A stretch of 32,000 nucleotides of DNA, taken from an uncultured Alphaproteobacteria bacterium. Lineage in GTDB: Bacteria > Pseudomonadota > Alphaproteobacteria > Rs-D84 > CACZYB01. Under the pieces are notes generated by a model. That model did not search any database. It was given only the letters and a program-made list of their open reading frames with translations, and was not told the origin of the DNA. The translations under genes were made by a program, and so were the position numbers. Shown here in pieces: positions 1-24,426 of the stretch. Numbering within the stretch: position 1 is the first letter of the stretch; every line of letters starts with the position of its first letter. The stretch lies in assembly GCA_934246625.1 (NCBI GenBank), contig CAKQHZ010000002.1, positions 180,001 to 212,000 on the forward strand. Reading direction: 5' to 3'.

Positions 1-289
1 TGAATGAAATGAATTTATCGTCCTTTAACAATTTGTCCTTGAATAAATTAAGGCTTTGTATCTCTTTATTAAGATATTTTATTTTGATTGTATTTTCTTC
101 AAATTCGGAGCTTTTTGGTTGAAGGTTGTTTTGGTCATTTGAAAGTAGGTTTATTTTGTTTTGCACAGATTTTATTTTTTTTGAAATAATGCTTTGTGCG
201 GATACATCAATTGTTCTGCCTTCTTCTGTTTTATTTAAAGAATTTATGAATTCTTCTATTTCTATAATATCTTTGTTTGAATTTGCCAT
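1..289 (-). CDS. hypothetical protein, N-terminal part only (gene runs off the left edge); charged, coiled-coil-like
   Basis: A reverse-strand ATG at 289..287 opens a frame (MANSNKDIIEIEEFINSLNKTEEGRTIDVSAQSIISKK...) that stays open to position 1. It is missing from the supplied track because the window edge truncates it. It has the same orientation as ftsK and lies just downstream of it. No recognisable motif. Confidence 0.4.
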   Translation of the reverse strand, partial: MANSNKDIIEIEEFINSLNKTEEGRTIDVSAQSIISKKIKSVQNKINLLSNDQNNLQPKSSEFEENTIKIKYLNKEIQSLNLFKDKLLKDDKFISF

Positions 290-358
290 AATATATTCCT
301 TTGTTTATACCTATATAATAAACTTTTTTGTTATATTATGCAATGAGTTATTTTTCCT

Positions 359-2635
359 TTATTGGTTTTTAGTCAAGATTGTGCGTTTGCCAGTTGAATC
401 TGGAGCAGAAAGAATTCCGTTTTCTTGCATTTTTTCAATAAGGTTTGCGGATTTGTTGTATCCTATGCCAAGACGACGTTGAAGATATGAGATTGATGGT
501 CGGTCGGCTTCTAAAATAATTTGAACGGCTTGGTTGTAAAGGTTTTCATCTTTGTTTTCCTTTGTATCATTGAATACGGTTTTATCAAGAAGACTTAATG
601 CAGAATCCTTTGTCGGTTTTTCTGATGTAATATTTCTGACATAGTTTGGTTTTGCCTGAGCCTTTATAAATGTAACAACGTGTTCAATTTCGTCTTCGGA
701 TACAAATGCACCGTGAATACGGATAAGGTTGCCACCCATAGCCATATAAAGCATATCTCCCTTTCCAAGCATAAGTTCAGCACCTTGTTCATTGATAATG
801 GTTCGGCTGTCGATTTTGGAAGCTACACGATAGCTTATACGATTAGGAAAGTTTGATTTGATTGTTCCAGTGATAACATCGACAGATGGTCGTTGTGTAG
901 ACAGTATTAAGTGTATACCAGCAGCACGTGCCATTGCGGCAAGTCTTGCGATGGCGGCTTCAACTTCCTTTCCCGCAACAAGCATAAGGTCAGCCATTTC
1001 ATCGACAATGACAACAATATATGGAATAGGTTTGATTTCGATTTTTCTTTCTTCCATTATTGGTTCGCCAGTTTGTGGGTCAAAGCCAGTTTGAACTTCA
1101 CGTGTAATGAATTGTCCAGCCATTGATTTTGCCTTTTGGTTATAGGATTCAATGTTTTTTGCACCAAGGGCGGACATATTTCTATTTCTTTCTTCCATTT
1201 CACGAACTGCCCATTTAAGTGCAGCGACAGCCTTTATTGGGTCTATTACAACAGGGATAAGTAAGTGTGGAATGTCGTTATATACTGAAAATTCCAACAT
1301 CTTTGGGTCAATCATTATGAATTTGCATTCGTCAGGTGTGAATTTGTAAAGAAGTGAAAGTATCATTCCGTTCACACCAACTGATTTACCAGAACCAGTT
1401 GTTCCAGCAATAAGTAAGTGAGGCATTTTTGCCAAATCTACGAATACAGGATTTCCACTTGTATCACTTCCAAGTGAAATAGGAAGAGTGTGTTCGGTTT
1501 TTGCAAAGGTTGAGCTTTCGAATTGTTCGCGAAGATATACCATTTTTCGGTGTGTGTTTGGAAGTTCTATACCAATTTTGTTTGTTCCTGGAATAACTGC
1601 AACACGGGCAGAGAGGGCTGACATATTTCGTGCAATATCTTCGGATAATGCAGTGATGCGAGATGTTTTTATTCCACGGCCAGGTTCCATTTCAAAAAGG
1701 GTGATAACTGGACCTGTTTTTATGCTTGTGATTTTACCTTCTATACCAAATTCGGTGAGAATGTTTTCAAGCATTTTTGCCTTTTTTACATTTATTTCAT
1801 CGTTAATGTTTGAATTTTTATCTGATTTAATAGGGTTAAGTAAATCAGTTGTTGGAAGAATGTATTTTGGTTTTGTGTTTATAATTTTTCGTTCAATTTT
1901 TGGCTCAGTTGGTTTTAAATCTTCTACAGAAGAAATTGATTTTTCAGTAGGTGTTTTCCTTTTTAATTGTGCAATCTTTATAGTTTGTTTTTTTAGTATT
2001 TTTGATTGGATAAAGTTTAATGTCTTTATATAAAGTTCGATTGATTTTTCTCTTATATATATGATGGAATTTTTATCCATATTTAGTGCATAGTAAAGTG
2101 TTAATATGTTTAAAGCAATGCTTAGTAAAACAAGGATAATTTGAAAGTATGGTGAAAGGTTAAGTGTTGTTAAAATATCCTTTAAATCGGATTTTATTAT
2201 AAAGCCAGTAAGTCCGCCAAGTCCAGTTTGAGTTGGAGATGTCCTAAATATAATGTTTGATAGATAAGATAAATTTAATGATAAAAATATTGTGCTTAAT
2301 ATCATATAAATTGAAATTTTTTTATATGAATATTTTAAGTATGATTTTTTTATAAAATATCGGCCAAAGATATATAAAAAATAATTTGTTAAAAAAGATG
2401 TTAGACCTAAAAGTTCATACATAAACTTTGCATAATTTGAGCCAATTTTCCCACATAAATTTTTTATTTGAAATGTTGATGCGGTTGTAAAACTATTGTC
2501 TGTTTGTGTGAATGAAAGTAGAGAAATTGTGAAAAACAAACTTAAAAAAACAAGAAAGACACCAAAAGCCTTTTGGCATAACTTTATTAAATAATGCTTA
2601 ATGGTTTCTGGTATGAAGCTTTCTTGTTTTTTCAT
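359..2635 (-). CDS. ftsK: DNA translocase FtsK
   Basis: 758 aa. N-terminal multi-TM region, Lys/Pro-rich linker, and a motor domain with Walker A GTTGSGKSV and Walker B VVIVDEMADLM. C-terminal gamma winged-helix (SISYLQRRLGIGYNKSANLIEKMQENGILS). Confidence 0.95.
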   Translation of the reverse strand: MKKQESFIPETIKHYLIKLCQKAFGVFLVFLSLFFTISLLSFTQTDNSFTTASTFQIKNLCGKIGSNYAKFMYELLGLTSFLTNYFLYIFGRYFIKKSYLKYSYKKISIYMILSTIFLSLNLSYLSNIIFRTSPTQTGLGGLTGFIIKSDLKDILTTLNLSPYFQIILVLLSIALNILTLYYALNMDKNSIIYIREKSIELYIKTLNFIQSKILKKQTIKIAQLKRKTPTEKSISSVEDLKPTEPKIERKIINTKPKYILPTTDLLNPIKSDKNSNINDEINVKKAKMLENILTEFGIEGKITSIKTGPVITLFEMEPGRGIKTSRITALSEDIARNMSALSARVAVIPGTNKIGIELPNTHRKMVYLREQFESSTFAKTEHTLPISLGSDTSGNPVFVDLAKMPHLLIAGTTGSGKSVGVNGMILSLLYKFTPDECKFIMIDPKMLEFSVYNDIPHLLIPVVIDPIKAVAALKWAVREMEERNRNMSALGAKNIESYNQKAKSMAGQFITREVQTGFDPQTGEPIMEERKIEIKPIPYIVVIVDEMADLMLVAGKEVEAAIARLAAMARAAGIHLILSTQRPSVDVITGTIKSNFPNRISYRVASKIDSRTIINEQGAELMLGKGDMLYMAMGGNLIRIHGAFVSEDEIEHVVTFIKAQAKPNYVRNITSEKPTKDSALSLLDKTVFNDTKENKDENLYNQAVQIILEADRPSISYLQRRLGIGYNKSANLIEKMQENGILSAPDSTGKRTILTKNQ

Positions 2636-3706: not shown

Positions 3707-3910
3707 TTTATTAGAGTATCTTTATTATATACCAAAAATAAAAATATTTCTAGTATATTTTTTATAATTTATTTGTATAAATTTACAGCAACTTTAGGTT
3801 GAAAATCTTAATATTTTCGAAAAACGCGATATATGTTGTTGACTTTTGAAAAGAATCGGCATAGTGTGAAATTGTTCTTTATTTGTTCCATATTTAAGGA
3901 GGAGGGTAAA

Positions 3911-4279
3911 ATGATACATAAAAAGGAACTTTCGGAAAATGACACGAATGAGGTTTTATTTGATTGTGCAGAGGAGGCTTGGTTTTGGTATTGCAAATAT
4001 GAAAATAAAAATCCTTTTAAATCAAAAAATTCAAATAAAGTTATCGTAAGACCTTGTGTTTTAGATGATATTTATATTTCTGTTGTAAAGTTATATTTGG
4101 CAAAGAAAATCAGTGAAAGACATATAAAAACTCTTGTAAAATATGGCAGATTGCTTTGTCCACCAGATGCAAGAATCAAAGAAGAGGAAATGGAGGCGTT
4201 ATGGTGGGACGATGCGATGGATAAATTGGAAACAGTGTTGATTAAAAAGGGAATTGTTCGATGCAAGAATTTGGATTAA
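3911..4279 (+). CDS. hypothetical small protein (122 aa), Trp/Cys-containing, helical
   Basis: A strong SD (AAGGAGGAGGG) lies 5-6 nt upstream of ATG 3911, which is internal to track ORF 3833..4279. The 3' end overlaps the next ORF by 19 nt. I recognise no family. Confidence 0.6.
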   Translation: MIHKKELSENDTNEVLFDCAEEAWFWYCKYENKNPFKSKNSNKVIVRPCVLDDIYISVVKLYLAKKISERHIKTLVKYGRLLCPPDARIKEEEMEALWWDDAMDKLETVLIKKGIVRCKNLD

Positions 4280-20294: not shown

Positions 20295-20947
20295 TGAAAA
20301 AAAATATTTTAATATCTGCAAGTTTAACATCAACTGATTATTTTGATATAGAAAAAACTATTGCTTTGGTAAATAGCTCTTCTGTGGATAGGATTCATTT
20401 TGATGTTATGGACGGTGTATTTGTGCCAAATATTACCTATGGTCCAGATTTTATTTCATCGGTTAAATTACACACAAAAAAATTTTTTGATGTGCATCTT
20501 ATGATTATCAATCCTTTGTCCTATATTGAAAGATTTGTTGATGCTGGTGCAGATTTGATAAGCGTGCATATTGAGGCAAAAAATACTATGAAGTCGATAA
20601 AACTTATTAAATCTTTTGGTGTGAAGGCAGGGATTGTTATCAATCCAAAGACCAGTTATAAAAAGGTTTTGAAGTATTTGGATTTTGTTGATGAAGTTAT
20701 GGTGATGAGTGTTGAACCTGGGTTTGGTGGGCAAAAATTTATTGTTGATGTTGTGCCAAAAATTCAAAAAATTTCACAAATTATAAAAAGTAAAGGTAAA
20801 AAAATTTTGTTGCAAGTTGATGGTGGAATCAATTTTGAAACGGGTAAACTTGTTATTGATAGTGGTGTTAATTCTTTGGTTGTTGGAAGTTTTTTATTTA
20901 ATCAAAAAAATTTTGATAAAACAGTTCTTAAATTAAAAAGTTTATAA
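20294..20947 (+). CDS. rpe: ribulose-phosphate 3-epimerase
   Basis: Motifs HFDVMDGVFVPNIT, DVHLM, MSVEPGFGGQKF and VDGGIN. The start overlaps the upstream stop (TGATG). Confidence 0.93.
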   Translation: MKKNILISASLTSTDYFDIEKTIALVNSSSVDRIHFDVMDGVFVPNITYGPDFISSVKLHTKKFFDVHLMIINPLSYIERFVDAGADLISVHIEAKNTMKSIKLIKSFGVKAGIVINPKTSYKKVLKYLDFVDEVMVMSVEPGFGGQKFIVDVVPKIQKISQIIKSKGKKILLQVDGGINFETGKLVIDSGVNSLVVGSFLFNQKNFDKTVLKLKSL

Positions 20948-20959
20948 TCTATATTTTTA

Positions 20960-20988
20960 TTTACAAAAATTTAATTATGTATTAAGAT
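20960..20988 (+). promoter_or_regulatory. candidate sigma70-type promoter (TTTACA-17 nt-TAAGAT)
   Basis: The -35 TTTACA is at 20960-20965, followed by a 17-nt spacer and the -10 TAAGAT at 20983-20988, just after the rpe stop. This would start a transcript near 20995, about 220 nt upstream of the first Cys-rich gene. Confidence 0.35.
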
Positions 20989-20995
20989 GAAATTA

Positions 20996-21212
20996 GGTTT
21001 GGAAGTTATTCTGAACTTAGTGTCCTTAATGGATACGGGATTGTCGAAGGTCCTTTATAGTCTGCGTATAACGCAATGTTATATGGTAAATGCCCCCGCC
21101 TTTAGTGGGGAGCCCTTGATGTATGTTCAGAGGATATATCTTTATGTCCTTAAAGATCTTGTGGAATCATTTCAGACTATATGATTTTCGAACTCCCCGC
21201 CGTTAAGGATAA
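20996..21212 (+). ncRNA. candidate structured 5' leader / cis-regulatory RNA (unclassified)
   Basis: GC-rich blocks sit in an AT-rich background. A local hairpin spans 21092-21113. A 9-bp long-range pairing joins 21056-21064 to 21173-21181. An alternative 8-bp helix joins 21105-21112 to 21193-21200. TGTCCTTAA occurs at both 21021-21029 and 21145-21153, and each copy is complementary to the SD region TTAAGGA at 21203-21209. Confidence 0.3.
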
Positions 21213-21629
21213 ATGGGAAAAATTTTTGTGTTTTTGCACAAAATAAAGGGGAAAAAGAACATGAACAAGAAGTTATCAATATTGGTATCTACATTTTTAT
21301 GTGTAGCGTTATCATCTAATGTAAAATCAGAAACATTAATAGAGTCATTACAAAGGTATTGTGTGCCAACTGCTGAAGTTTGCGGAACTGTGGCAAGGGC
21401 AACATACAACACATCGGAAAGTGCTTGCGAGTGTTCGGCTTGCGGAATGTATTATGATAAAACTTCCAGAAGTTGTCAGACTTGTCCAGAGGGAACTTAT
21501 GTGAACAACAGATACTCCACAGAGTGCATAAGGCCAGATTGTGGCATAGGCAATTATGGAGTTGTTGAAACTGGCAAAACCGATTGTGGAATAGGATTTT
21601 ACAAAGTAGCTTTATCCAGTTGTAAATAG
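21213..21629 (+). CDS. secreted cysteine-rich protein (CxxCPxGTY / DCGIGxY modules), unknown family
   Basis: The signal peptide (MNKKLSILVSTFLCVALSS) is preceded by a short MGK... extension. The alternative start ATG 21261 has SD AAAGGGG. The roughly 100-aa mature part has 11 Cys, with SCQTCPEGTYV and a duplicated DCGIG(N/F)Y. GC content is visibly higher than in neighbouring genes. Confidence 0.7.
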   Translation: MGKIFVFLHKIKGKKNMNKKLSILVSTFLCVALSSNVKSETLIESLQRYCVPTAEVCGTVARATYNTSESACECSACGMYYDKTSRSCQTCPEGTYVNNRYSTECIRPDCGIGNYGVVETGKTDCGIGFYKVALSSCK

Positions 21630-21636
21630 GAGATAT

Positions 21637-21677
21637 GGGAGGAGGTATTTTCTTATGGTTTTTGCTTCCTCCCTCCC
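21637..21677 (+). other. GC-rich hairpin sequestering an SD-like GGAGGAGG
   Basis: GGGAGGAGG (21637-21645) pairs with CCTCC(C)TCCC (21668-21677) across a 22-nt loop that contains ATG 21655. No U-tract follows on either strand, so it is not a canonical terminator. Confidence 0.5.
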
Positions 21678-21711
21678 AAAAGATAAGATGAGGTGTTTAA
21701 TGAGAAAAAGA

Positions 21712-21776
21712 GTCAGCACAAAAGTACGAAGTGCAACGGTAGCCCTAAAGGGACGGAGGGCAGTTGCTTTGCTGAC
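21712..21776 (+). ncRNA. candidate structured RNA element: three coaxial helices (7+5+5 bp)
   Basis: GTCAGCA (21712-21718) pairs with TGCTGAC (21770-21776). GCAAC (21733-21737) pairs with GTTGC (21763-21767). GCCCT (21742-21746) pairs with AGGGC (21757-21761). The internal loops are asymmetric, and the element is about 50% GC in an AT-rich background. Confidence 0.3.
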
Positions 21777-21849
21777 ATACTAAACCCTTAAAGAAAAATA
21801 AGAAAAATGGAGAAATAATGGAAAAGTTTTTAAAACTAGAACCTTATAA

Positions 21850-21910
21850 GAGCACACCCCGCAAGGGGGGGTAAGGGGTGTGCTCGGTAAAATTGATGTA
21901 TCAATTTTAC
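21850..21910 (+). other. twin perfect hairpins (11-bp GC-rich followed by 10-bp AT-rich)
   Basis: GAGCACACCCC (21850-21860) pairs with GGGGTGTGCTC (21875-21885); an inner alternative is CCCC-GCAA-GGGG. One nucleotide later, GTAAAATTGA (21887-21896) pairs with TCAATTTTAC (21901-21910) across a TGTA loop. No U-tract follows. Confidence 0.5.
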
Positions 21911-21964
21911 ATACATTAAAATTAAAAACTAATATTAACAAACTAAACTGAAAGGTAAAATAAA

Positions 21965-22684
21965 ATGGGAAAAATGAAAAATATGAACTTATTGTTGGTA
22001 ATGACAACTTTGCCAATGACTGCAAAAGCCGATCTTTTTAAATGTATGGCTTGTACTAATAAACCTGCTAACGCTCACTATACATCCGGCGGAACCAATA
22101 CCTCCAATTGCTCTTGGTCTTGCGATAGCGGATATACTAAAAATGATAATTTATGCTGTGCAAATAAACCTGATAATTCTTATTATTACTCCAATAATTG
22201 TGGTTGGAATTGTAATAGCGGGTATGCATCTTGTAATAGTCGTTGTATTAAAGATGAAAGAATTGCGAATTCATCATACAATTCAAGTTGTGAGCTAGAA
22301 TGTAATAAAGGATATAAACCTGTTTATACAACAACTGGTGGAGGTTGTTCATTTACTGTGAAGACTTTATCTGAGTGTAAAGTTGATCCTTGGGTTCACT
22401 GTGCGACAACAGCTAATGCTATATATATTCAATTTACTCATACTACTGAATATGGTGAATCATGTGCTAGCTCACAAAGAAAATATTATTCTGCGGGAAC
22501 TTCATTTAATCCTGTTTTTAGAAGTTGGGAAAAAGGTAGGTGTGCTTATGTGATGTTTAGAATATATAAAACATCAGATCAAACACTTTTAAAAACAGTA
22601 TCAGTCAGCGTTTTCAAGACACAATTTGATTATGACCAAAGATATATTTATTGTGATGGAAAACTTCAAAAATATACTGAATAA
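21965..22684 (+). CDS. secreted cysteine-rich repeat protein (3x C-x-[WL]-x-C-[DN]-x-G-Y modules), unknown family
   Basis: Short signal peptide (MKNMNLLLVMTTLPMTAKA) and 18 Cys. Three tandem modules between 22052 and 22315 read CTNKPANAHYTSGGTNTSNCSWSCDSGY, CANKPDNSYYYSNNCGWNCNSGY and CIKDERIANSSYNSSCELECNKGY. The first codons (ATGGGAAAAAT...AAYATGAAC...TTGGTA) are shared with the upstream Cys-rich gene. Confidence 0.72.
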   Translation: MGKMKNMNLLLVMTTLPMTAKADLFKCMACTNKPANAHYTSGGTNTSNCSWSCDSGYTKNDNLCCANKPDNSYYYSNNCGWNCNSGYASCNSRCIKDERIANSSYNSSCELECNKGYKPVYTTTGGGCSFTVKTLSECKVDPWVHCATTANAIYIQFTHTTEYGESCASSQRKYYSAGTSFNPVFRSWEKGRCAYVMFRIYKTSDQTLLKTVSVSVFKTQFDYDQRYIYCDGKLQKYTE

Positions 22685-22689
22685 AAAAG

Positions 22690-22714
22690 AAAAGGGGTTT
22701 TGCCCCTTTTTTTT
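22690..22714. terminator. bidirectional intrinsic terminator between convergent genes
   Basis: AAAAGGGG (22690-22697), loop TTTTG, CCCCTTTT (22703-22710), with an A-run upstream and a T-run downstream. It sits between the stop of the Cys-rich gene (22684) and the stop of epmA (22713). Confidence 0.8.
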
Positions 22715-23771
22715 ATAGTGTTGGAATTTCGGTCCAAAGAATATCCTTTATATCATTTGCACCAGTTGAAAGCATTATTAAGCGGTCAATTCCCATTGCA
22801 ATGCCAGTGGCTGGGTCCATATTTTCTATGGCTTCGATAAAACTTTCATCAATAGGATATGTTATGCCGTATAATTCCTTTTTTGTTTGCATATCGTGTT
22901 CAAAGCGAGCACGTTGGATTTTTGCATCGGTTAGTTCGGTGAATGCATTTGCAAGTTCAACTCCACAAACATAAAGTTCGAATCGTTCAGCAATATTTTT
23001 ATTGGTATCCTTTGCCTTTGAAAGGGCAGCTTGATGAATTGGATATTCATAAAGGATTGTTGGTTTTTCACAGCCAAGATTTGGTTCAATATATTCGAAC
23101 ATAAGTTTTTCGTATATGTCGTCCCATGTATCAATTTGTGATACGTTGATGTTTAGTGATTTTGCCTTTTCTTCCAATAAATGTTTTGATGGGTTTTCTG
23201 GATTATCTATTGTTGCGAGTATATCAAAGTGGCAAAATTTTTCAAATGCTTCCTTTACAGTTAATTTTTCCATACCATTAAATGGAGAACATTTTTTACC
23301 ATTGTGTTCAAAAAATTCTTTGCCGATTGATGATAATGCGGATTTTAAAATTTTTTCGCAATCGTCCATAAGTTTTGTATAGTCGTAATGTAATCTATAC
23401 CATTCTAACATTGTGAATTCAGGATAGTGTGTAGGAGATACAATTTCGTTTCTGAAGGTATGAGTAAATTGATAGATATTTTCCATACCGAAACTTAGCA
23501 ATTTTTTCATTGCGAATTCAGGTGATGTATGAAGGTATAAAGTTTTTGGGTTTGTGCCAGTTATGTCCAAAAATTTTGTTTCAAATGCGGTAAGGTGGAC
23601 TTCCATTCCTGGGCAATATTGAAGGATAGGGGTGTCAACTTCGGTAAAAGATTCTGTTGAAAAAAATTTTTTGATTGCGTTTATGATTTTGTTTCGCATC
23701 AAAAGAAAAGGAAGTTTCCTTTTGAAAACTTCCCTTGCTTTGTATGTATGTAAATTATTATTTTGCATCAT
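22713..23771 (-). CDS. epmA: elongation factor P--(R)-beta-lysine ligase (EpmA/GenX/PoxA, LysRS paralog)
   Basis: About 350 aa class II aaRS catalytic core without an anticodon-binding domain. Motif 1 is FTEVDTPIL, motif 2 is FTHTFRNE...PEFTMLEWY and motif 3 is GIAMGIDRLIML. The start is placed at the MMQNNN Met pair (23771/23768). The longer track ORF (to 23906) is a low-complexity read-through antisense-free overlap with rplY. Confidence 0.85.
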   Translation of the reverse strand: MMQNNNLHTYKAREVFKRKLPFLLMRNKIINAIKKFFSTESFTEVDTPILQYCPGMEVHLTAFETKFLDITGTNPKTLYLHTSPEFAMKKLLSFGMENIYQFTHTFRNEIVSPTHYPEFTMLEWYRLHYDYTKLMDDCEKILKSALSSIGKEFFEHNGKKCSPFNGMEKLTVKEAFEKFCHFDILATIDNPENPSKHLLEEKAKSLNINVSQIDTWDDIYEKLMFEYIEPNLGCEKPTILYEYPIHQAALSKAKDTNKNIAERFELYVCGVELANAFTELTDAKIQRARFEHDMQTKKELYGITYPIDESFIEAIENMDPATGIAMGIDRLIMLSTGANDIKDILWTEIPTL

Positions 23772-24426
23772 TTGTTTCTTCAGCTTTCTTTGCAGCCTTT
23801 TCTTCTTGAGCAGAAGGAACTTCAGCTGATACAGGAGCTTCTGTTTCAACAACTTCTTCAACAGCAGAAGTAATTGTTGCGATTGTGAATGGTTCGTGTG
23901 ATGCAAATCTTAAACCATTTGGTAATTTAACAGATGTTGAGTGAATTGATTCAGCAACATCAAGGTTTTGAACATCAACTTCGATTGCGTCAACCATATC
24001 TGATGCTTTACAGATAACTTCAGCTGAACGGCTAACGATGTTAAGAACAGCACCTTTTTTAACACCAGCACAAATGTCTTCGTTGATAAATTTGAATGGG
24101 ATTTCAACAGTAATTTCTTTGTTCAAATCAATTCTTAAAAAGTCAACGTGAATAGGACAATCTTTTACTTTGTCGTATTGAATTGCTTGGCAAAGTGCAA
24201 GTTCTTTTTTAGCTTTACCTTCAATTTCAAGTTCAAATTGACGAGTTCTGAAACCCTTTGTTTGCATTTGTTTAAGTAAATCTTTTGGAGTAATAGAGAT
24301 AAGTTCAGGATCTTGTTTATTTCCATAAATAACAGCAGGAATTAAACCAGCTCTTCTTGTTGCACGTGCGGCCCCCTTACCACTTGTTTGTCTTGGTTTT
24401 ACATTTAAAACTACTTTATTTGTCAT
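23758..24426 (-). CDS. rplY: 50S ribosomal protein L25 (general stress protein Ctc form)
   Basis: The N-terminal KPRQTSGKGAARATRRAGLIPAVIYG signature, a two-domain length (222 aa) and an Ala/Glu-rich C-terminal tail. Confidence 0.93.
   Translation of the reverse strand: MTNKVVLNVKPRQTSGKGAARATRRAGLIPAVIYGNKQDPELISITPKDLLKQMQTKGFRTRQFELEIEGKAKKELALCQAIQYDKVKDCPIHVDFLRIDLNKEITVEIPFKFINEDICAGVKKGAVLNIVSRSAEVICKASDMVDAIEVDVQNLDVAESIHSTSVKLPNGLRFASHEPFTIATITSAVEEVVETEAPVSAEVPSAQEEKAAKKAEETNDAK

Follow-up and report, generated by a model that had tools for sequence, protein, structure and literature searches.

The RNA described here is closest to three kinds of described system: terminating riboswitches and attenuators, such as the pbuE adenine and c-di-GMP-I riboswitches; the small RNAs (sRNAs) of Alphaproteobacteria that act against Shine–Dalgarno (SD) sequences through C/U-rich motifs, namely AbcR/alpha-r15 and the CcsR 'cuckoo' RNAs; and sRNA-Xcc1. 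It is rare for a new class of structured RNA to reach ~200 nt and show solid covariation. Such classes have historically proved to be riboswitches, ribozymes or protein-scaffolding RNAs. sRNA-Xcc1 (RF02221) is an integron- or mobile-element-borne sRNA that has been found upstream of symE (10.1101/2025.06.18.660453) and upstream of an ORF6N gene (10.1101/2020.03.17.996009). Here, we analyzed a 32,000-nucleotide stretch of DNA from an uncultured Alphaproteobacteria bacterium (positions 180,001 to 212,000 of contig CAKQHZ010000002.1, assembly GCA_934246625.1; hereafter, the window) and found that the spacer between rpe and a pair of Cys-rich genes encodes a member of a conserved, strand-specific and highly structured RNA family with no counterpart in Rfam. 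This RNA is a new, previously undescribed family, which we tentatively read as a cis-acting attenuator or riboswitch-like leader.

Like terminating riboswitches and attenuators, the RNA has a promoter-proximal domain, a multi-helix junction, pairing between its 5′ and 3′ ends and strong covariation. Moreover, five of its lineages have a predicted terminator followed by an SD and an open reading frame (ORF) within ~60 nt, and a conserved alternative helix may compete with the base of this terminator. It differs from these systems in that it matches no curated class by sequence or structure, its downstream genes differ in function and are for the most part uncharacterised, the RNA has no gene behind it at one orphan locus, no terminator is convincing in the window lineage, and its length of 185–230 nt exceeds that of most aptamers. 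With the AbcR and CcsR sRNAs it shares the alphaproteobacterial source, a C-rich motif complementary to purine-rich SDs, and a predicted promoter and terminator of its own. However, it has no Rfam match to the AbcR or CcsR families, its C-rich motif is paired rather than placed in a loop, and it is much larger and branched. The comparison with sRNA-Xcc1 involves an alternative fold of the RNA and is given with that fold below.

A strongly folded RNA that matches no known class

The plus strand of 20985–21215 folds at −84.8 kcal/mol, compared with a mean of −52.8 kcal/mol for shuffled sequences (z = −7.4; 0/200 shuffles folded as well). The minus strand of the same region reached z = −3.1, an asymmetry that is expected because of the G:U pairs in an RNA read from the plus strand. 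The G+C content is 0.39–0.43 over 21000–21200 versus ~0.28 in the flanks, which agrees with the GC-rich blocks on an AT-rich background that an earlier, first-pass annotation of the window had pointed out.

The whole window was searched against Rfam 15 (4227 covariance models, including the curated riboswitches, 6S, transfer-messenger RNA (tmRNA), signal recognition particle RNA and RNase P), and no model matched at its gathering score. At E ≤ 10, only chance-level matches were obtained for 20800–21400 and likewise for six homologous loci, and ARAGORN reported no tRNA or tmRNA. The first-pass annotation had suspected a structured RNA outside the known classes and had proposed an Rfam scan; the fold statistics and the scan bear this suspicion out. 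Two resemblances to known RNAs were followed and rejected. The motifs UUCGAAC and GGAU.ACGGGAU had brought to mind tmRNA or a tRNA-like domain; UUCGAA is part of the covarying 3′ strand of helix P3 (see below), and no T-arm, tag ORF or CCA was found. RNase P, brought to mind by GAAAGUCC, and 6S RNA were dismissed because neither length nor branching fits and Rfam gave no match.

Homologs occur at five genomic sites

Judged by the relatives of its rpe protein, the window belongs with metagenome-assembled genomes of uncultured gut and rumen Alphaproteobacteria; the source is an uncultured, host-associated, AT-rich gut lineage of this class. We collected ten distinct RNA sequences from ~8 lineages at five genomic sites: directly after rpe, 2.7 kb from rpe after an outer membrane protein gene, between an ABC-F gene and a 181-aa gene, upstream of lpxA, and between bamA and lpxD. 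Homologous loci are referred to by number (L001 and so on) where they must be told apart. In L002, the element lies directly after rpe and is 83% identical to the window at the DNA level, while the adjacent rpe protein is only 71% identical; L001 likewise keeps the element after rpe. The copies in L093 and L092 were found in metagenomes with a two-block DNA pattern, and contigs encoding the neighbouring proteins added L094–L097 (the window species), L114 (a strain variant), L113, the truncated L112, and L115–L117.

A covariance model (R1) was built from the window lineage alone, with the ground-state fold described below (Fold A). This model recovered distant members over their full length, scoring 76.7 bits for L001, 68 bits for L118 (a copy that had gone unnoticed before the R1 search), 66.6 bits for L093 and 38.1 bits for L003; with filters off, L115 and L116 were also matched over their full length at ~22 bits (E ~5e-4). 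L113 was missed by nhmmer and scored just 6.3 bits with R1 because of its large insertions. We accepted its homology because it matches L003 and L112 nearly base for base outside the inserts.

Searches of mobile-element sequences were negative: blastn against plasmid and phage collections gave no match, and in IMG/VR a 17-nt tail pattern returned only 11 random matches and a two-block pattern only 4, also random and in GC-rich coding DNA. The Cys-rich protein could not serve as a handle for further loci because it has only two relatives in a set of 5.8 billion proteins.

Compensatory changes support the ground-state fold

In every homolog, the minimum free energy (MFE) structure of the core is Fold A, which consists of a 5′ hairpin (P1), a closing rod (P2–P3–P4) and a junction with P5–P7. 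All helices given here lie on the plus strand. The rod comprises ~24 bp with interruptions, its 5′ strands at 21037–21064 pairing with 3′ strands at 21173–21197. P4 carries the strongest signal: its 5′ strand UAUAGUCUG (21056–21064) pairs with 21173–21181, all nine pairs change on both sides among the homologs, and no cell is broken. Within ±3 kb, this 5′ strand is the only strong partner of the P4 3′ strand. In P3, the 5′ strand GUCGAAGGUC (21043–21052) pairs with 21183–21193, with one A bulged at 21191 or 21192; two-sided changes affect 5/10 pairs, and pairing is retained in 100% of cells. The 3′ strands of P4 (21173–21181) and P3 (21183–21193) together occupy 21173–21193. P2, formed by GGGA (21037–21040) and UCCC (21194–21197) in the MFE structure, is mostly invariant G:C and still shows compensation, with GGGC:GCCC in L113, and GGAG:CUCC in L118 versus GGGG:CCCC in L093.

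P1 is a local hairpin, GUGUCC-UUAAU-GGAUAC (21020–21036), present in the core MFE structure of all homologs, and three of its six pairs change on both sides. The conserved core is preceded by a 5′-terminal hairpin (20992–21019 in the MFE structure; its 13-bp stem reaches 21021 in the window), and a hairpin of differing sequence stands at the same place in L001, L002, L113 and L093. Within the junction, P5 is a variable MFE hairpin, CGUAUAAC-GCAAU-GUUAUAUG (21065–21085), in whose place the homologs have at least one hairpin of unrelated sequence. P6 (21092–21113) is likewise an MFE hairpin, paired in 98% of cells with one-sided changes only; its 3′ strand holds GGGGAG (21107–21112), which is invariant in nine of the ten distinct sequences. 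The P7 arm (21114–21164, MFE) ends in an inner hairpin, P7b (21130–21138 with 21143–21151), whose sequence differs among the window, L002 and L001 with pairing retained, and all five pairs of outer P7 change on both sides. Two conserved motifs, RUGYAUGUNCARAG and UAAAGAYC, face each other across its internal loop. The arm is followed by a junction strand conserved in sequence, GGAAUCAUU (21164–21172), and the rod by a near-invariant C-rich tail, CUCCCCGCC (21193–21201), which pairs with the GGGA of P2 in Fold A.

The hairpin at 21092–21113 and the 9-bp helix 21056–21064/21173–21181, both proposed in the first-pass annotation, are real and correspond to P6 and P4. Its suggestion of a pseudoknot was not borne out, the MFE structure being nested and long-range. 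Nor was the supposed pairing of the second of two TGTCCTTAA boxes in the element with TTAAGGA supported; this box is the 3′ strand of P7b.

Because MAFFT misplaced the variable helices P4 and P5 when distant members were aligned, covariation was counted on a gapless helix alignment registered by hand with artificial anchors. In this alignment, 98.3% of 356 cells are standard pairs and 23 of the 45 pairs change on both sides, a number reached in 0/500 shuffles. When the 3′ partners were slid by 1–3 columns as a control, only 3–7 two-sided pairs were obtained. The percentage of paired cells is inflated, since the register was chosen to pair; the wholesale replacement of helix sequences that remain complementary is independent of that choice.

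Promoter, coding status and downstream gene start

A candidate sigma70-type promoter precedes the RNA at 20960–20988 on the plus strand (−35 TTTACA, 20960–20965; 17-nt spacer; −10 TAAGAT, 20983–20988). It had been picked out in the first-pass annotation, and a consensus scan found it at 9/12, with a predicted transcription start near 20995. A promoter-like site stands at the equivalent position in L001, L002, L003, L113, L112, L093, L092 and L118, and every copy of the RNA has a sigma70-like hexamer pair ~30–40 nt upstream of the conserved core.

We consider it very improbable that the region encodes no RNA element and is instead a small protein gene (the 65-aa ORF at 20987–21184) or a palindromic DNA repeat, such as a miniature inverted-repeat transposable element (MITE). 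The region is indeed a long imperfect inverted repeat, and three public assemblies of the species carry a gene call for the 65-aa ORF (L094, 3194–3391; L095, 1961–2158; L096, 1957–2154). However, stops and frameshifts interrupt the ORF in L002 and L001, no other homolog has it as an intact frame, its ATG overlaps the −10 box, the substitutions in the helices are compensatory rather than synonymous, and the fold is strongly strand-asymmetric through its G:U pairs (z = −7.4 versus −3.1). The element is also single-copy in the 32-kb window, with none elsewhere in the other loci examined. The protein-coding reading was rejected on the lack of ORF conservation, and a repeat element or MITE (for example, a Rickettsia palindromic element) on the single copy and the strand-asymmetric fold, since such repeats need many dispersed copies. 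The first-pass annotation had named conservation of the 65-aa ORF as grounds for giving up its proposal; as the ORF is unconserved, this objection does not arise. For the same reason, the 65-aa protein annotation that public assemblies carry over the RNA is very likely spurious, which is of practical concern to users of these assemblies.

The rpe gene, which precedes the RNA, ends at 20947, and the first Cys-rich secreted-protein gene (cys1) occupies 21261–21629 on the plus strand, with the SD AAAGGGG at 21245–21251 and the start codon ATG 21261. Since the next gene begins at ATG 21261 and not at ATG 21213, the spacer after rpe is 313 nt of non-coding DNA. The long gap noted in the first-pass annotation is therefore real, although larger than its ~265 nt. 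The start it assigned, ATG 21213 with TTAAGGA as SD, is wrong: the 122-aa product of ATG 21261 equals the gene calls of public assemblies of the same species, its N-terminus, beginning MNKKLSILVSTFLCVALS, resembles a signal peptide, and the start regions of L001 and L002 align with the SD/ATG 21261 region of the window. SD sequestration in the form proposed there falls as well, TTAAGGA being the 3′ strand of a helix (P0, below). The sequence features listed in that annotation were nevertheless all found where it had placed them. Between the RNA and the SD lies a small conserved hairpin, UUUUGUGU-UUUU-GCACAAAA (21224–21243, plus strand, MFE), whose positional counterpart in L001 and L002 is UUUUACGAU-UUUU-AUCGUGGAA.

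Complementarity for a second fold is conserved

The architecture of the RF02221 model pointed us to an alternative fold of the RNA (Fold B), and complementarity for this second, mutually exclusive fold is conserved. In Fold B, the GGGGAG of P6 would leave its local partner and pair with the tail CUCCCCGCC over 9–10 bp, and a further hairpin (ALT) would replace the 3′ halves of P3 and P4. The first-pass annotation had noticed the core of this pairing, GTGGGGAG (21105–21112) with CTCCCCGC (21193–21200), which is indeed complementary, conserved in the homologs and mutually exclusive with the local hairpin P6. In terms of the tail, the Fold-B partner is GUGGGGAG (21105–21112). The outer helix can form over 9–10 bp in nearly all lineages, as GGU(U)GGGGAG with a tail CUNCCC(C)G(N)CC, and where L003, L113 and L118 carry one more U, the tail has gained a G or an A to match it. 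The length of the tail thus varies together with its partner: GGUUGGGGAG stands with CUNCCCGGCC in L003 and L113, and GGUCGGGGAG with CUCUCCGACC in L118. The ALT hairpin pairs GAAUCAU (21164–21170) with AUGAUUU (21181–21187) on the plus strand and is paired in 95% of cells. It appears as GACUG with CAGUU in L092 and as a perfect 7-bp stem in L116; its three double changes all fall in the L092/L116 clade. Together, the Fold-B helix, P7 and the ALT hairpin would make a three-way junction.

In this fold, the 3′ half of the RNA would have the same shape as the sRNA-Xcc1 model, namely a G-rich/C-rich outer stem enclosing two hairpins and followed by a short tail. Both RNAs also have a small gene downstream and lie in variable DNA, and two homologs match the model weakly (L093 at 26.4 bits and L116 at 19.5 bits; the window gave no match). 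Membership in RF02221 was rejected, as both scores fall below the gathering score of 53. Unlike sRNA-Xcc1, the RNA here is twice as long and has another fold as its ground state: the Xcc1-like three-way junction occurs in Fold B, which is not the MFE structure and whose outer stem is invariant. The context also differs, with no integron or symE, no plasmid or phage match, and downstream genes that encode Cys-rich secreted proteins, an XRE-type helix-turn-helix (HTH) protein and proteins of no known kind.

A further pairing, P0, joins the opened P1 hairpin with the 3′ flank after the tail. In the MFE structure of the window, GUCCUUAAUGG pairs with CCGUUAAGGAU (21022–21032 with 21200–21210, plus strand), the latter containing the supposed SD TTAAGGA. 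P0 is compensated with different sequences in L002 (13/14 pairs) and L001 (11/14 pairs), and the pairing of the first TGTCCTTAA box with TTAAGGA, also put forward in the first-pass annotation, is accordingly real and covaries in both loci. In L003 and L113, the flank at the P0 position reads as an intrinsic terminator. The sequence of the P1 stem recurs in its stem, which allows either a pair of local hairpins or a single long-range duplex.

Terminators and a variable downstream module

Five lineages (L003, L113, L118, L093 and L092/L115/L116) have a predicted intrinsic terminator after the tail. In L093, L092 and L118, the MFE structure places it directly against P2. In L003 and L113, it was read from the sequence as a local hairpin because the full-length MFE structure pairs the flank with P1. 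The Fold-B helix, also read from the sequence, would overlap the bottom 2–4 nt of the terminator 5′ strand in L003, L113, L118, L093 and L092. The terminator scan flagged internal P5 hairpins with U-runs in L093 (5948–5970, minus strand) and L113 (3817–3846), which may bring about premature termination within the RNA or be a coincidence of AT-rich sequence.

In seven of the eight lineages, a co-oriented ORF starts 39–78 nt after the tail, and these ORFs are unrelated to one another. They encode Cys-rich secreted proteins in the window and L001. The ORF of L113 has a product of no assigned function whose N-terminus is signal-like, that of L115–L117 encodes an XRE-type HTH protein of 84 aa, and that of L118 a 99-aa product that also has no assigned function. 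In L003, a 2-codon ORF lies at 39 nt and a Cys-rich gene ~215 nt after the tail; in L002, the short ORF is unclassified since the contig ends. The L093 RNA is an orphan that has its own terminator, is convergent with the ABC-F gene and has no downstream gene.

The RNA and its downstream gene are missing from several relatives. In L106 and L108–L110, rpe abuts a convergent epmA-like gene, and in L118–L121 the lpxD-fabZ-lpxA cluster is uninterrupted, with RNA and cargo absent at these places. Because close relatives lack both at the same site, the RNA and the gene behave like a variable module that has been inserted. Its cargo is hypervariable: next to an identical rpe and a near-identical RNA, cys1 is only 56% identical in L114 and cys2 only 44% in L095. 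The RNA itself varies in the L092 species, in which LpxA (100%) and the flanks are identical and two RNA alleles exist (L115, 528–705, minus strand, versus L116, ~255–400, minus strand): P3, P4, P7 and the terminator loop have different sequences, and pairing is preserved. The downstream region does not covary with these variable helices, since it is identical in L115 and L116.

A cis-acting leader and its alternatives

Because the RNA is conserved with compensatory changes and is nearly always followed closely by a small gene that evolves fast, a new regulatory leader is the probable reading, and the genomic context leans towards one that acts in cis. Under this model, the family would be transcribed from its own promoter as the 185–230-nt 5′ leader of whichever small gene follows, with Fold A, in which the P2–P3–P4 rod closes the junction carrying P5, P6 and P7, as its ground state. 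In the five terminator lineages, Fold A would abut an intact terminator and transcription would stop; formation of the Fold-B helix would consume the 2–4 bottom nt of the terminator stem and permit read-through. More generally, Fold B or P0 would remove the base or the strands of the terminator, and the RNA would work as a transcription-attenuation switch, riboswitch-like, responding to some signal. In the window lineage, the terminator appears to have decayed, its 3′ flank pairing with the opened P1 as P0, and a single transcript probably covers the RNA and the Cys-rich gene pair. Transcription, switching, control of termination and the existence of a signal are what we infer from these sequences. 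Among the attributes of riboswitches, the RNA has a structured domain with covariation (23/45 two-sided pairs and 0/500 shuffles, with the hand register and ~8 lineages) and, by position, a predicted place in the 5′ untranslated region, an ORF following within 39–78 nt in 7/8 lineages; its downstream genes are unrelated and have no family assignment, and so do not form a coherent set pointing to a ligand. The general idea of the first-pass annotation, a structured leader with alternative helices that is riboswitch-like or an sRNA, thus holds, while its specific anti-SD mechanism fails.

Several observations weigh against a cis-acting switch. Forced Fold B is 10–22 kcal/mol less stable than Fold A; its outer helix has no true covariation because it is almost invariant, and in L113 and L114 it is interrupted by mismatches. 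Just 2–4 nt are shared with the terminator, a simple terminator scan did not flag the post-tail hairpins, and the window, L001 and L002 have no convincing terminator. Promoters and terminators were assigned at the consensus level only, and the covariation counts derive from a hand-made register over only ~8 independent lineages. Finally, the L093 RNA has no downstream gene, and elsewhere the genes that follow the RNA have no function in common, in contrast to the regulons of classical metabolite riboswitches.

A rival reading is a stand-alone sRNA gene. Transcribed from a promoter of its own up to an intrinsic terminator, its product would act in trans or bind a protein, and the gene would lie upstream of variable genes incidentally or because it flanks a recombination or insertion hot spot. 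The promoter-like site in all lineages, the terminator right after the tail in L003, L113, L118, L093 and L092/L115/L116, the orphan L093 locus and the persistence of the RNA at five genomic sites would all suit such a gene, as would the weak architectural likeness to the sRNA-Xcc1 model and the complementarity of the tail CUCCCCGCC to the GGGGA-type SD of these genomes. That tail, however, is base-paired in P2 in the ground state, and no complementary target was found within ±3 kb. The spacing of 39–78 nt to the next ORF in 7/8 lineages is more regular than expected of an unrelated neighbour, and a terminator is not convincing in the window, L001 or L002. On balance, we regard an sRNA gene as rather unlikely. 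Less likely still is that the RNA bears the specificity of a small variable module that would serve immunity, incompatibility or the recognition of self, with P3, P4 and P7 carrying allele-specific information; by analogy with phage P1 C4 RNA, it might then be processed at the acceptor-like GGGGAG:CUCCCC stem followed by GCC. The L115/L116 alleles within one species, with P3, P4, P7 and the terminator loop swapped and pairing kept, speak for this idea, and it would also accommodate the absence of RNA and cargo from the same site in L106, L108–L110 and L118–L121, the hypervariable cargo beside an identical rpe (cys1 56%, cys2 44% identical), the contigs that often break just downstream, and the XRE-type repressor-like gene after the RNA in L115. 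Against it stand the absence of an integrase, a transposase or a direct repeat of the RNA 3′ end in the window, the lack of matches in plasmid and phage collections and in IMG/VR, and the lack of a second target site within ±3 kb. A C4/P1-like model with a second downstream target was rejected for want of such a site within ±3 kb and of anything that covaries with the L115/L116 alleles, and an integration-site model because the RNA 3′ end is not directly repeated and no integrase adjoins the RNA. The remaining probability goes to other functions, for example a protein scaffold or a ribozyme.

The RNA might even represent, although we consider this unlikely, a new class of large regulatory switch that gates hypervariable secreted or surface proteins and small regulators, in which the allele-swappable P3, P4 and P7 would encode recognition specificity (for a nucleic acid in trans, or for self versus non-self) and not just a scaffold. 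As the RNA precedes fast-evolving secreted or surface-like proteins and small repressors, it may control host-interaction or variable-island genes. With two exclusive, conserved folds and an allele pair with exchanged helices, it offers a tractable system in which to study RNA switching and the maintenance of RNA structure under rapid sequence turnover.

Other features of the locus

The two Cys-rich genes of the window (21261–22684; also present in L094–L097, L114 and L098) match no family except for a weak similarity to Ephrin_rec_like. They are mosaic, with identical C-terminal parts, and many public contigs end inside or just past them. Further structured elements accompany these genes. Immediately downstream of cys1 (21636–21680), GGGAGGAGG...(U-rich loop)...GCUUCCUCCCUCCC forms a conserved hairpin, which recurs in L003 (7522–7570), where it stands between the RNA and the Cys-rich gene, and in L098 (~3840–3878); its CU-rich 3′ strand is anti-SD-like. 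The spacer between cys1 and cys2 holds a second conserved element (21712–21778; L098, ~4038–4105), closed by GUCAGCA/UGCUGAC around an inner CCC-UAAA-GGG hairpin. It is kept in two lineages with a few compensated pairs and has no Rfam match. At 21851–21887, a GC-rich hairpin is formed by GAGCACACCCC...GGGGUGUGCUC, and L098 has an equivalent of other sequence, AUCGCCCUCCC...GGGAGGGCGAU.

Two motif duplications had been noted in the first-pass annotation. CCCCGCCnTTA does occur twice in the window; this count is not significant by itself (0.39 expected; 6/100 shuffles reach two). TGTCCTTAA occurs twice in the element, as stated, and five times on the plus strand of the whole window (9531, 16636, 21021, 21145 and 25958), with 0.31 expected and 0/100 shuffles reaching five. 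The three copies outside the RNA element fall where long ORFs are listed and may be an effect of codon usage.

Downstream of the Cys-rich genes, the minus strand carries an ORF for an EpmA/PoxA-like class II tRNA-synthetase paralog (22713–23906). Its program-listed length is 397 aa, with a low-complexity N-terminal extension that overlaps the L25 gene; its true start is probably internal, since public gene calls give 352 aa. In L115, the region 1–240 (minus strand, downstream of the 84-aa HTH gene) contains direct repeats, GTCATCCC.CGATT....AGCAATCG, and CTGTCA units before the contig end, which may explain why the contigs all break there.

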